Shown: positions 2,693 through 6,239 of the stretch, one piece after another | Position numbering within the stretch: position 1 is the first letter of the stretch | Layout: each line of letters starts with the position of its first letter | Virus genome (UHGV): UHGV-1436680 | Source of the DNA: a virus | Direction: 5' to 3' (one strand) | DNA: 6,300 nt | The notes under the pieces: model-generated | Databases searched by the model: none | What the model saw: only the letters and a program-made list of their open reading frames with translations | Told to the model about the DNA's origin: nothing | Position numbers and translations under genes: made by a program

Positions 2693-2893
2693 GCCCACCT
2701 CTACCCACTTTTTTCGCCCACTTTTTACGTTTTCCCACTTCGTCCAACGTGGGAAATTTGGGATTTATATCATCTTGTTTCATAGGTATTTTTTAGTGCC
2801 CACTTTTTGGGATATATACACGTGGGAAAGTGGGTAATTTTGTTAAAATTCCGTTAAATCGCCCACCTTTCCCACTTTTAATGCCCACTTTTT
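2693..2893. repeat. Iteron array, putative origin of replication
   Basis: Core CCCAC, usually followed by a T-run (GCCCACTTTTT), occurs 8 times in direct orientation (starting about 2694, 2704, 2717, 2734, 2799, 2862, 2871, 2884) and 3 times inverted as GTGGG (2749, 2822, 2830). Includes the inverted pair TTTCCCAC-N10-GTGGGAAA (2731-2756) and an AT-rich stretch (2757-2820). It lies immediately 3' of the Rep gene and overlaps its stop codon. Confidence 0.7.
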
Positions 2894-4301
2894 ACAGTGG
2901 TCCTACATCATCACCGTCAATGTAGATCACGTCGTCTTTTTCCAGTTTGGCTAACCATCGTTTAAGGTGTTTTGTGTCATACTCCAGCTTTTTCATATCG
3001 TCACGTAACAGCGGGATCGTGCACTTGTCGCCGTGCTGTGTGCGTGAACGTATGCATCCCCATAGCGCGGTATGGTTTTCCGTCTTGTTGCCTGCCTCCT
3101 CGATGCGCTCCAGTTCAACGGGAGGGCGCGGCTTATCCACCACCACCAGCGACGTGATTAACTCCCCGTCAGCGTCGGTAAAAAGCTCCACCACGCGTAA
3201 GTCATATGCGGCTTCTTTGAGTTCCTCCGCGTCCTTCATTTTGGTGCATGAGATAACCAGCGCTTCGCTTCCTGCGTCCTCCCTGCGTATCCGGTATTCA
3301 GCATCCAGCGAAGCACGAAATGCACTGGAACCGCGCGCGCCTTTCGTCTCATCCTTGCCGGAATGGTGAACCACCAGCACCGTGGCCCCTGTGCGTCGTT
3401 TCAGTTCGTCACAACCACGGATAAACGCCCCCATATCACGGGAATCATTTTCATCATTACCACCAAAGCAACGCGCCAGCGTATCCAGAATAATCATGCG
3501 AACAGGTTTACCCGTTTCCCTCTCCACCTGACGGGCAGCGATAACCATTTCATCAACATCAAGCGGGACCGCCGGAAAGATGGGACGGTTTACCAGATAC
3601 AGATTTTTCACCTGCTCACCGTGCACAACCTCCCAGGCTTTTACACGACGCGGAACGCCGATACCGCCTTCACCAACCACATAGAGAACAGCGCCATGCG
3701 CCACCCTGCGGCCTCCCCACTGGCGGCCCGTGGAAACGTGACACGCCCACGATCCGGCAAGGAATGATTTATAGGAACCGCTCGCCCCGTATATGCTGCA
3801 AAGCGACGATGCCGGAATAATCCCCTTTACCACGTAATCAAGCTGTGTGTCGTATCCGGTAGATCCAACGCTCATCGGTAGCGTGGTTTTTCGCTGGGGG
3901 ATTTTTTTCATGACCAGGCTTTCCCCGCGTTCCCATGCCTCCCTAAGCCGTGGAAGCTGGTCGCTCCATTCCTCCAGCAATTCGAAATTTTCAGAAAGTA
4001 GCCGCGCCTCCTGGACTCCGGCGATCGCCAGTTTCGTGGCGATGGTTAACAGCTGCGGCTCTTCAATATTTCCGGCGCGTATCACCGTCGCCCTGTATCG
4101 CCCATCATCAACAATCTGGAGGTTATCCAGTTCGCTTAACTGATAACGCCCCAGATAAACGGGAGGGACTGGATCTCCTGCTTTTTTTGCCTGTGCAATG
4201 ATGTAATGCTCTGCGAATGAATGAGCATCAATACCCGCAAAAATAATCGCATCGGTGTATTTATCTTTCGGTAATCGTTTTACGTTCGGTGCCAGTTTCA
4301 T
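2892..4301 (-). CDS. Replication protein, RepA/DnaB-like RecA-fold helicase-family ATPase (AAA_25-like), 469 aa, with an unassigned N-terminal domain of about 150 aa and a C-terminal putative DNA-binding region
   Basis: P-loop-like GASGSYKS (complement of 3765-3788), Walker B-like VRMIILDTLARCFGG, and VLVVHHSGKD...GSSAF matching the hhhHHxxK...GssA pattern of RepA-type helicases. Strong SD AGGAG 7 nt before the ATG. Start overlaps the upstream stop (ATGA at 4298-4301). Iterons lie directly downstream. No primase motifs seen. Confidence 0.8.
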   Translation of the reverse strand: MKLAPNVKRLPKDKYTDAIIFAGIDAHSFAEHYIIAQAKKAGDPVPPVYLGRYQLSELDNLQIVDDGRYRATVIRAGNIEEPQLLTIATKLAIAGVQEARLLSENFELLEEWSDQLPRLREAWERGESLVMKKIPQRKTTLPMSVGSTGYDTQLDYVVKGIIPASSLCSIYGASGSYKSFLAGSWACHVSTGRQWGGRRVAHGAVLYVVGEGGIGVPRRVKAWEVVHGEQVKNLYLVNRPIFPAVPLDVDEMVIAARQVERETGKPVRMIILDTLARCFGGNDENDSRDMGAFIRGCDELKRRTGATVLVVHHSGKDETKGARGSSAFRASLDAEYRIRREDAGSEALVISCTKMKDAEELKEAAYDLRVVELFTDADGELITSLVVVDKPRPPVELERIEEAGNKTENHTALWGCIRSRTQHGDKCTIPLLRDDMKKLEYDTKHLKRWLAKLEKDDVIYIDGDDVGPL

Positions 4302-4602: not shown

Positions 4603-4836
4603 TTATTCTCCGGTGTGCTGTTCGTTATATCTGTCGTGCAATGTCTCTATTTCCTGCAACTCATTTATTACAGGCTCAAGAAGCGTTATTAATGATGTAA
4701 TAATCCGCGTTTTTTTTGCATTACGTTCATTATCGCCAAAGGATTCAAGGCACATCCGCAATATTTCGTACATACCTTCAGCGTAAGCAAGGGCACTAAA
4801 TGCGCGGTCTATTGTTTCAAGATAAATATCACGCAT
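4603..4836 (-). CDS. Hypothetical small protein (77 aa)
   Basis: ATG preceded by GAGGA. The start overlaps the stop of the upstream ORF by 8 nt (ATGCGTGA). Lies in a low-GC stretch. No family recognised. Confidence 0.5.
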   Translation of the reverse strand: MRDIYLETIDRAFSALAYAEGMYEILRMCLESFGDNERNAKKTRIITSLITLLEPVINELQEIETLHDRYNEQHTGE

Positions 4837-5062
4837 GGCTTACATCCTCAGGAAATTTTCTTCTGTAACGCGCCTCTGCCACATATTCCGCATAATCGGC
4901 GGCGATATTCAGTACATCAAGTCCCGTTGATTTATATTCTTTCGTGGAAAGTAAGAAAAAAGCCGCTCTAATAAGTTCTGGCATTGACGAAAGCGCATCA
5001 GCCGCATCATCAGGAACGCCGGAAAATTCTTGTTTCAGGGAATTAAAACGATCATCACGCAT
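4829..5062 (-). CDS. Hypothetical small protein (77 aa)
   Basis: The ATG immediately follows the G9 tract (GGGGGGGGGTTATG). The ORF overlaps the 3' end of the upstream ORF by 28 nt. No family recognised. Confidence 0.5.
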   Translation of the reverse strand: MRDDRFNSLKQEFSGVPDDAADALSSMPELIRAAFFLLSTKEYKSTGLDVLNIAADYAEYVAEARYRRKFPEDVSHA

Positions 5063-5277
5063 AACCCCCCCCCATTTTCACAATCAGCAACAAGAATATT
5101 TTTAGCGTCATTCAGCGACCGCGTTGCGATGTATCGGATACATTCCAGGGCGAACTGTGTCCGGTCTTTCTGTTCTTCTCCCTGCGCAAGCTCTGCCGTG
5201 CATTCAATATCAATAAGCGCGTGCATCAGCGTAGTGAGTGCGGCGGCTGCTGCGTTCGGTGTGGTTTTATTGTGCAT
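5035..5277 (-). CDS. Hypothetical small protein (80 aa)
   Basis: Start chosen at the internal ATG (MHNKTTPNAAAAAL...) preceded by GGGGGA. The 3' end reads through the G9 tract (ENGGGLCVMIVLIP). Predicted helical; no family recognised. Confidence 0.45.
   Translation of the reverse strand: MHNKTTPNAAAAALTTLMHALIDIECTAELAQGEEQKDRTQFALECIRYIATRSLNDAKNILVADCENGGGLCVMIVLIP
5065..5073. repeat. Homopolymeric C9 (G9 on the coding strand) tract at the junction of two overlapping small ORFs
   Basis: Nine consecutive C at 5065-5073, read directly from the sequence. Confidence 0.9.
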
Positions 5278-5467
5278 AGGTTTCCCCCTGACGAATACGG
5301 GCGGCGAATACAGCAACACAACCGGACGGGCAACGGCTACGCGCTTCGCGTTCCGTCCAGGCGGTTACGTGGATGATTTGAGATTCTCCGGCACTCAGGG
5401 CCAGAAAACGCCACACAAAGGCCGTTTGTGTGTGTACAAGGTGTGGTATATGATTTACGGCAACCAT
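5267..5467 (-). CDS. Hypothetical small protein (66 aa), possible first gene of the minus-strand early operon
   Basis: ATG at 5467 preceded by a strong SD (AGGAG, 5-nt spacer). The frame is open for 66 codons (MVAVNHIPHLVHTQTAFVWRF...). The stop lies 8 nt downstream of the next ORF's ATG. Support is start context only. Confidence 0.35.
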   Translation of the reverse strand: MVAVNHIPHLVHTQTAFVWRFLALSAGESQIIHVTAWTEREARSRCPSGCVAVFAARIRQGETYAQ

Positions 5468-5557
5468 AACGGCTCCTAGTTTACGTTGTTGGTTAGAAGC
5501 CCTGCGAGTGGTAATGACACTTGCGGGGCTTTGCTTTTTTAAGTGCTCTTGTGTTAA

Positions 5558-5601
5558 GGTGACCACCTAACAATGGAAAGGCTAATTCAATAGGTGACCA
5601 C
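5558..5601. promoter_or_regulatory. Two copies of GGTGACCAC(C) in the divergent intergenic region; candidate operator half-sites
   Basis: GGTGACCACC at 5558-5567 (near-palindrome, arms GGTG/CACC) and GGTGACCAC at 5593-5601, 35 bp apart. The second overlaps the SD and start of the Arc-like gene. A weak -35/-10 candidate (TGACCA, 17 nt, TAATTC) overlaps the first copy. Confidence 0.4.
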
Positions 5602-5793
5602 TTGTCAACAATCAAACGCGATAAAAGCCCTAAAGGGGACGGGCAATCCCCACAATTCAGAATGCGAATTTCTCCAGAGCTAAAAGAGCAATTCGACAAA
5701 GAAGCACAGAGCGACGGCATAAGCCTAGCCAACTGGCTTAAAGAGTTGGGGCGCACTGAACTAAAGCGGCGCGGCATAGAACCCAAAGGATAA
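5602..5793 (+). CDS. Arc/Mnt-like ribbon-helix-helix DNA-binding protein (63 aa, TTG start)
   Basis: PQFRMRISPELKEQFDKEAQSDGISLANWLKEL aligns with the P22 Arc (PQFNLRWPREVLDLVRKVAEENGRSVNSEIYQRV) and Mnt beta-strand/helix A/helix B pattern. SD AGGTGA lies 4 nt before the TTG. The internal ATG at 5662 would delete the beta-strand. Confidence 0.6.
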   Translation: MSTIKRDKSPKGDGQSPQFRMRISPELKEQFDKEAQSDGISLANWLKELGRTELKRRGIEPKG

Positions 5794-5850
5794 AAACTAT
5801 CAGCGCCGTGGTGTGAGGTATTACGGCGCATTGCTATGCAGGACAACACA

Positions 5851-6024
5851 ATGACCGATAAAGAATTGACCAAAACATTATCACCGGCACGGAAAAGACG
5901 GCGCAGAAAGATAGAGCATGAATCAGAAAGATTCGCACCATGTGCTTTTGCCCTTGAGCAATTCCTTAAAGAGTATAGGGAAAAGCGCTCATTGCAGGTA
6001 TGGCAACGAACTGAACCAGACTGA
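5851..6024 (+). CDS. Hypothetical small basic protein (57 aa)
   Basis: ATG at 5851 with AGGA 7 nt upstream. Arg-rich segment ARKRRRRK. Followed by a terminator. Weak evidence, no homology recognised. Confidence 0.3.
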   Translation: MTDKELTKTLSPARKRRRRKIEHESERFAPCAFALEQFLKEYREKRSLQVWQRTEPD

Positions 6025-6118
6025 TTGCATTGCCCACCAGCCTGATAGCGGCTATCATCCCCGTGCTTATGTTTGGGATCACATACACATAAGGCGCAGC
6101 GGGTTAATTGTTCAGAAA

Positions 6119-6146
6119 GGCGGCTCCATATCGGGGCCGCTTTTTT
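6119..6146 (+). terminator. Rho-independent terminator for the plus-strand Arc-like unit
   Basis: Stem GCGGCTCC (6120-6127) pairs with GGGGCCGC (6133-6140), with one G-U pair, around a 5-nt loop, followed by T6 (6141-6146). Confidence 0.6.
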
Positions 6147-6239
6147 CGTGTTTGTCATATCTGTGATACCCGTTAAGCAGCCGTTCCGCGTGCTTCCTGT
6201 TCGCGTTCTTTCTGCCAGGCCAACACATCATCCTCATAC

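Follow-up and report, generated by a model that had tools for sequence, protein, structure and literature searches.

The poly-G and poly-C contingency loci of Neisseria, Haemophilus and Campylobacter carry a coding homopolymer of 7-12 G's, in which slipped-strand mispairing changes the reading frame and whose length is polymorphic among near-identical strains. Classical switching at such loci is reversible, takes place at roughly 1e-2 to 1e-5 per generation and is visible within a clone. In the operons of phages and satellites, adjacent genes may overlap by ATGA or ATGnnTGA and form coupled pairs, with a Shine-Dalgarno (SD)-like run inside the upstream open reading frame (ORF). A further group, represented by Shigella mxiE, the transposases of insertion sequence (IS) elements and Thermus dnaX, has overlapping ORFs at a run of about 9 nucleotides (nt), where one additional nucleotide results in a fusion. 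Here we describe a locus that shares features with each of these systems. It lies in a 6,300 nt stretch of the virus genome UHGV-1436680 (the whole stretch is called the window hereafter), which is 100% identical to the chromosome of E. coli MS 21-1 and belongs to a phage-inducible chromosomal island (PICI). The prototype of the Gram-negative PICIs is EcCICFT073, the island of strain CFT073 (Fillol-Salom et al. 2018, PMC6092414); that paper gives c1499 and c1500 as its capsid and decoration homologs, and helper-phage-induced excision, replication and packaging are demonstrated experimentally for EcCICFT073 only.

The locus consists of a run of nine G's (G9) at the junction of two small overlapping ORFs:

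5065..5073, minus strand: poly-G tract, G9 (C9 on the plus strand), within ORF1 and separated by 2 nt from the ORF2 ATG downstream
5035..5277, minus strand: ORF1, 80 amino acids (aa) from its ATG in the G9 state, with the stop codon at 5035-5037
4829..5062, minus strand: ORF2, 77 aa, beginning MRDDRFNSLKQEF at its own ATG (5060-5062), in the -1 frame relative to ORF1
5035..5062, minus strand: ORF1/ORF2 overlap of 28 nt, specific to tracts of 3n G's (G9, G12)

In this state ORF1 reads ...GAA AAT GGG GGG GGG TTA TGC GTG ATG..., and the tract codes for the Gly-Gly-Gly that ends its conserved part. The protein is made up of 71 conserved residues ending ...ADCENGGG, followed by a 9-aa tail, LCVMIVLIP, that is set by the frame. 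These coordinates, the frames and the 28-nt overlap agree with an earlier account made from the DNA letters (the sequence-only reading), which had also called runs of eight or more G/C rare. They are indeed infrequent: only 18 were counted outside the tract in 1.27 Mb of E. coli-type DNA, and 12 of these were copies of two other recurring tracts. The G9 is the sole run of its kind in the window; the expectation from dinucleotide-preserving shuffles is 0.04 per window, and at least one such run appeared in 6 of 200 shuffled sequences.

We favor the view, with a probability of about 0.55, that this is a genuine slippage-prone poly-G tract placed between two translationally coupled genes, and that its length drifts among three tolerated arrangements. 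The G9 in the window is most likely neither an assembly error nor the sign of a dead gene, and the PGAP annotation of 4829-5277 as one 'frameshifted' pseudogene is probably an over-call.

Tract length and gene arrangement among related islands

Tract length was recorded by a variable-gap pattern scan and in complete E. coli genomes sampled at even intervals. The scan yielded 137 independent contigs, of which IMG/VR contributed 84, metagenomes 52 and Shigella one. Among the 137 contigs, 33 carried G7, 62 G8, 29 G9, five G10 and two G11, while the remaining six had interrupted tracts, namely GGGGGTGG in three, G8TGG in two and G10AG in one. The complete genomes gave 19 G7, 12 G8, 11 G9 and one G10, and G9 represented 21-25% of all alleles in the two surveys. 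Five near-identical loci from complete genomes carried G9, G9, G10, G9 and G12, the last in JNEC-KY176, and the overall range in relatives was G7 to G12. No allele shorter than G7 was found in the pattern scan, although the pattern admitted G5. In the comparison of homologous loci that the sequence-only reading had proposed, both tract length and the fused or split state vary and G9 is not universal. The distribution has a single peak without 3-nt periodicity and all three frame relations are common, as would follow if no arrangement is strongly selected against.

Each tract length determines one of three junctions. With 3n+1 G's (G7, G10) the ORFs are fused and would give, through a GG(G)V linker, a protein of 144-154 aa. 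With 3n+2 G's (G8, G11) there would be two genes sharing an 8-nt stop/start overlap, ATGCGTGA, which is the canonical one of the operon. With 3n G's (G9, G12), the state of the window, there would be two genes with the 28-nt overlap and the alternative 9-aa ORF1 tail. In the mechanism that we propose, the tract would do two jobs, since it codes for the Gly-Gly(-Gly) end of ORF1 and would also supply the SD of ORF2, and replication slippage would alter its length over evolutionary time. ORF2 would initiate on its own in either split state; because it can do so, both polypeptide modules would be made in all three states, and the fused and split forms would be functionally equivalent.

The sequence-only reading had predicted that G10 or G7 would join the two ORFs into a protein of about 150 aa, and natural alleles of this kind exist. 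N4220121 has G10 and an intact coding sequence of 145 aa, O157:H7 has G7 and an intact coding sequence of 154 aa, and P0036 (149 aa) matches the conceptual G10 fusion of the window at 146 of 149 residues. The fused proteins (144-154 aa) comprise a GG-VM class (G7) and a GGG-VM class (G10), and were found down to about 61-63% identity. Another fused subtype, ENGGG-MRDD, was seen at L147:799-824 and L150:799-824, where G8 is followed by one T in place of TT; this route to fusion, present in two haplotypes, is an indel in the 2-nt spacer and not in the G run. Products of all three states are widespread as exact matches: the 80-aa ORF1 of the window (G9) on 201 contigs, the 73-aa ORF1 of CFT073 (G8) and the 154-aa fused protein of O157 (G7) each on at least 1,000 contigs, and the 77-aa ORF2 of the window on 991 contigs.

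These counts bear on another suggestion of the sequence-only reading, that an artefact had split a single gene. Homopolymers are error-prone on long-read platforms, and the true MS 21-1 tract might have been G10 (or G7 or G8), miscalled as G9. However, the same 80-aa G9 product is on 201 contigs and indexed in 421 blocks from unrelated draft genomes and metagenomes, and the 24 contigs that were read (unrelated NCBI drafts and an ENA metagenome) all have the same neighbourhood. Moreover, L027, a metagenome contig that matches the window without a single difference along 1,144 nt (863+281), also has G9. Together with the share of G9 in both surveys, these data make a miscall hardly credible, and the artefact was discarded.

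The ORF1/ORF2 junction and the status of ORF2

In CFT073 (G8) there are two coding sequences of 73 aa that share the 8-nt ATGCGTGA overlap; ORF1 ends ...GGT TAT GCG TGA (GGGYA*) and ORF2 starts within it. The same motif is found at the next junction of the operon, as shown by these features of the window:

4829..4836, minus strand: ORF2/ORF3 stop/start overlap, ATGCGTGA, 8 nt, the canonical coupling junction
4603..4836, minus strand: ORF3, 77 aa, the small gene that follows in this operon, phrog_2196
5284..5288, minus strand: ORF1 Shine-Dalgarno, a G5 run, caGGGGGaaacctATG

The pair has the structure of coupled genes, with an SD-like run upstream of the ORF2 start and within ORF1, and with overlapping start and stop codons. 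The run before ORF2 is complementary to the anti-SD of the 16S rRNA, with a duplex energy of -11.1 kcal/mol for G8 to G12 that is the second strongest in the operon; the value for the ORF1 SD is -9.4 kcal/mol, and both ORF1 and the capsid gene use G5 runs as SD. The pairing shows G runs to be the predicted ribosome-binding sites of this island operon, and we infer that ORF2 is translated independently or by coupling. In a recoded version the poly-G tract would read GGAGGTGGC.

ORF2 also occurs apart from ORF1. In JE86-ST05 and EcPF14 (loci L144 and L145), a near-identical ORF2 stands behind an unrelated gene of 118-121 aa and is preceded by a run of G6 or G7; upstream of that gene, the homolog of ORF1 forms a gene of its own, of 73 aa. 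In about 239 of 889 genomes the match begins only at the ORF2 ATG. The junction before ORF2 in these two loci (1480-1510 in both) is cattcaGGGGGG(G)taaacATGCGTGA, also written cattcaGGGGGG(G)taaacATG, and the difference between G6 and G7 moves the upstream stop out of the ATGCGTGA overlap and onto a TAA shortly ahead of the ATG.

Of 120 fused homologs, 119 retain the initiator Met of ORF2. No stretch of the pair is better conserved than MRDDRFNSLKQEF, with about 99% column identity at the ORF2 N-terminus, and conservation is highest in the junction-proximal residues and at the ORF2 start. The PHROGs database holds distinct families, all of unknown function, for the fused protein, for ORF1 alone (ORF1 matches phrog_5146) and for ORF2 alone (phrog_24341, matched by ORF2). 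The interrupted tracts, in which the frame would be locked, are in the split 3n+2 frame in five of six cases, and five of the six have an intact 77-aa ORF2; the sole short ORF2 is in a G8TGG locus. Because ORF2 has a conserved ATG, an SD-like run and stand-alone copies in other islands, the idea of a single gene broken into two probably has matters the wrong way round.

Should the locus be dispensable cargo and the tract a mere mutational hotspot, the G9 allele would be a true pseudogene, as annotated by PGAP. The 'frameshifted' labels in MS 21-1, AF39 and JNEC-KY176 and the lack of frame preference are in line with such decay, as is the fact that sequence searches of Pfam, NCBIfam and PDB with the fused protein and both halves returned no informative match. 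Constraint is also modest, the ratio of nonsynonymous to synonymous substitution rates (dN/dS) being about 0.5 for ORF1 and 0.37 for ORF2. Yet both ratios are below 1, and both halves are without internal stops in about 125 of 131 loci although some 70% are 'split'. Neither the strong conservation around the junction nor the maintenance of ORF2 as a separate gene in other island types is expected of decaying sequence, which should furthermore build up interruptions and tracts shorter than G7, and both are rare. For these reasons neutral decay seems to us quite improbable.

A fusion could also be made from G9 with no change in the DNA, by a -1 ribosomal frameshift on G GGG GGG or by slippage of RNA polymerase adding one G. 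The heptamer formally fits X XXY YYZ in the zero frame, and ORF2, which lies in the -1 frame, would be reached from G9 by a shift of -1. The pairing energy given above makes the run SD-like, and SD-like sequences can stimulate frameshifting. However, programmed sites keep their frame relation whereas all three relations occur here, and no significant RNA structure was found downstream (z = -1.46), the only hairpin being one that uses the tract itself; an Rfam search of the window found nothing. As for transcription, programmed slippage goes with a run of about nine or more A or T and a conserved out-of-frame arrangement, and the locus has neither. In the E. coli transcriptome the homopolymer insertions were all in A/T runs, and G/C runs were reported not to be slippage-prone (PMC5574713). 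Recoding of either type is therefore very unlikely.

An AlphaFold2 model built on a 105-sequence alignment was of low confidence (mean predicted local distance difference test score, pLDDT, of 53.8). It shows a helical hairpin for ORF1 and three helices for ORF2, divided by a poorly predicted segment from the Gly run onward, a layout that is compatible with two all-helical modules, although the model is not strong evidence for them. The possibility that ORF1, ORF2 and ORF3 are tandem duplicates was dropped; BLASTP among them gave no alignment.

Mutability of the tract and its fixation within clades

Tract length changes in excess of point substitution. Where two loci have identical 800-nt flanks, their tract lengths differ in 19% of pairs; where the flanks are 1-2 substitutions apart, the lengths differ in 89% of pairs, a level equal to the saturated background. 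Identical 500-nt flanks carry G7, G8 and G9: the G8 form was present in 13 complete genomes, six of them O55:H7, and the G9 form in one. Since length differs between loci with identical flanks, the tract is, as judged from these haplotypes, orders of magnitude more mutable than a nucleotide site. Such mutability fits the report that the indel rate of E. coli rises exponentially with run length, in which 8-bp G:C runs of K-12 are described as outliers (PMC8510543).

Length is at the same time heritable. Among the matches listed, O157:H7 and O145:H28 were all G7 (at least 45 genomes), and the 042 lineage had G9 in all of about 20 assemblies. Also among the matches listed, O55:H7 (H105-H111) had the split G8 form and O157:H7 (H116 onward) the fused G7 form within the same 500-nt flanks. 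Tract length could consequently be used as a lineage marker that separates O157:H7 (G7) from its O55:H7 relatives (G8). As whole clades are fixed for one length, the tract does not seem to behave as a fast phase switch; such fixation speaks against rapid switching, for the G7 and G8 alleles at any rate, and the slippage rate appears to be far below that of classical phase-variable loci.

A contingency switch was the other suggestion of the sequence-only reading, and it survives in part: the length does vary, from G7 to G12, and its changes take the locus between fused and split forms, but the fixed clades fit a fast switch poorly. In its classical version the fusion of about 150 aa would be the functional product, G7 and G10 would be ON, and G8, G9, G11 and G12, including the window, would be OFF; the tract would be maintained since stochastic switching is advantageous, for instance in conflicts with helper phages. 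Length variation on identical haplotypes is what such a locus would show. So is the persistence of pure tracts down to about 61-63% protein identity, with none below G7 and few interruptions. The independent T deletion that restores the fused frame points in the same direction, as do the open halves, which also stay open in phase-variable genes, and a second variable poly-G in ORF3 of sister islands (described below), which is out of frame in 9 of 16 loci without a restart codon. On the other hand, clade fixation suggests rates, at least for G7 and G8, that are far lower than those of classical phase variation. OFF would be the commonest state, ORF2 is a stand-alone gene elsewhere, G8 recreates the normal coupling overlap of the operon, and the split frame prevails among the locked alleles, most of which have an intact ORF2. 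We consider a classical contingency locus unlikely.

Some observations also weigh against drift among equivalent arrangements of a coupled pair. PGAP takes the fused protein as the reference and flags the locus of the window as frameshifted, and fused forms are very common, including those of the successful O157:H7 and O145:H28 clades. The G8 plus single T route could mean that the fused form is at times favored. The dN/dS values are identical across tract states, a result that cannot tell the models apart, as changes of tract length outpace the build-up of substitutions. Finally, the pattern scan demanded exact flanks of 12 and 17 nt, which under-samples divergent alleles, and the tract-length counts are not phylogenetically independent.

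Island context, sister tracts and comparison with known systems

The element that hosts the tract is an EcCICFT073-type PICI, integrated at tRNA-Pro beside yejM according to the PGAP context. The island of MS 21-1 contains, in order, an integrase, a helix-turn-helix regulator, a hypothetical protein, an Icd-like gene, the ORF1/ORF2 locus, a 77-aa ORF, DUF4222, a RepA-family helicase, a single-stranded DNA-binding protein (SSB), PerC, homologs of the major capsid and head-decoration proteins, and a small terminase; AAA_25, SSB, PerC and Phage_cap_E were the Pfam matches. This order is syntenic with the CFT073 island, which, together with a non-prophage attachment (att) site, assigns the element to the EcCICFT073 type. 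The two islands share the integrase, the Icd-like gene, small ORFs, DUF4222, a replication protein, SSB, PerC, the c1499-like capsid and the c1500-like decoration genes, together with the ORF1/ORF2 pair itself. They differ in the att site, which in EcCICFT073 is between roxA and phoQ, in tract length (G8 in CFT073, G9 in MS 21-1) and in the replication gene, as EcCICFT073 has a P4-type primase in place of the RepA-family helicase. The helicase (469 aa, RepA-family/AAA_25; window 2892-4301, minus strand) and its 584-aa P4-family counterpart in CFT073 occupy the same position, both behind a DUF4222 gene of identical type, as in a module swap in otherwise syntenic islands.

The gene next to the pair, as annotated by PGAP, is the following:

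5267..5467, minus strand: Icd-like gene (NF033153, 64.6 bits), directly upstream of ORF1 and overlapping its start; it marks the early operon of the island

Beyond it PGAP calls a 221-aa Cys/Ser-rich ORF (5493-6158, minus strand) without Pfam, PHROG or NCBIfam match. An ORF of 63 aa lies antisense to it (5602-5793, plus strand), with a near-threshold match to HicB/ribbon-helix-helix proteins (20.4 bits against a cut-off of 21), at the site where relatives have a divergently transcribed YlcI/YnfO regulator; the 221-aa call may be spurious. ORF3 of the window contains a homopolymer of its own, a T8 on the plus strand at 4710-4717 that is A8 on the coding strand (codons ...AKKTR...).

The ORF1/ORF2 locus is present in about one fifth to one quarter of complete E. 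coli genomes. A scan of species-representative genomes with exact flanks gave a single match, in Shigella flexneri, and the locus is on this basis essentially confined to Escherichia and Shigella. A tblastn search of 50,697 deposited phage records gave no match, literature searches on homopolymer tracts or phase variation in PICIs returned nothing relevant, and term searches of two papers on EcCICFT073 did not find the small ORFs or the tract.

Other islands of the family have poly-G tracts that are not in the window. In a sister sub-family a second variable poly-G (G5 to G10) lies about 355 nt downstream of the first, inside the ORF3 counterpart, where it encodes Gly-Gly(-Gly) (L039:4778-4786; also L008, L021, L038, L045, L085, L098, L108, L114 and L123). 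Seven of 16 loci are in frame and give 68-69 aa; in the other nine a frameshift shortens the product to 47-52 aa, and no restart codon follows. In related contigs, a poly-G stands directly upstream of an ATG in the context TTAC-Gn-ATATGCCAAAGAATG (L066:8905-8914, G10; L088:1662-1669, G8), and looks like a third SD-like variable run.

It is tempting, if doubtful, to view the poly-G tracts of this island family as kept by selection, acting as evolvable switches of a small helper-phage-interaction module among split, fused and truncated forms. The tracts concerned would be that of the ORF1/ORF2 junction, the G6/G7 run that precedes ORF2 in the insertion variants, and the run in ORF3 of the sister islands. 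If this were true, a phage satellite of E. coli would carry a contingency system, and most of the switching might take place while the island replicates in a burst after induction. To our knowledge, G:C runs longer than eight are exceptional in E. coli and very few simple-repeat contingency loci are known in the species.

Apart from this, the locus has a practical side, as annotation pipelines disagree on whether it is one gene, a pair of genes or a frameshifted pseudogene, while in our survey all three forms are stable natural alleles. The tract and its sister tracts at satellite gene junctions offer a tractable natural case of homopolymer-driven gene fusion and fission, and a candidate for asking whether repeat-mediated variation serves satellites in the arms race against their helper phages.

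Compared with the systems described at the outset, the locus resembles the poly-G contingency loci in having its homopolymer within ORF1, just before the ORF2 ATG, and in varying in length among identical haplotypes. Unlike them, the E. coli tract is fixed within clades, its host is proficient in mismatch repair and no frame is preferred. In addition, the downstream ORF2 has its own start and SD, and a change in length would probably lead from fused to split and not from ON to OFF; the ATG, the SD and the stand-alone existence of ORF2 suggest that the tract has no OFF state. The G8 form, with its ATGCGTGA overlap and its SD-like run in the upstream ORF, is similar to the coupled overlapping genes of phage and satellite operons, from which the locus differs in that the SD is a slippage-prone homopolymer, so that 8-nt overlap, 28-nt overlap and fusion coexist as a polymorphism. 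With mxiE, the IS transposases and dnaX it has in common the overlapping ORFs at a run of about nine nucleotides that one extra nucleotide would fuse; the runs in those genes are of A/T and their out-of-frame arrangement is conserved, whereas the island run is of G and its frame varies among strains at the DNA level. The locus is, then, partly a contingency-like poly-G and partly an ordinary coupled pair, in which a homopolymer hotspot causes a natural polymorphism of gene fusion and fission.

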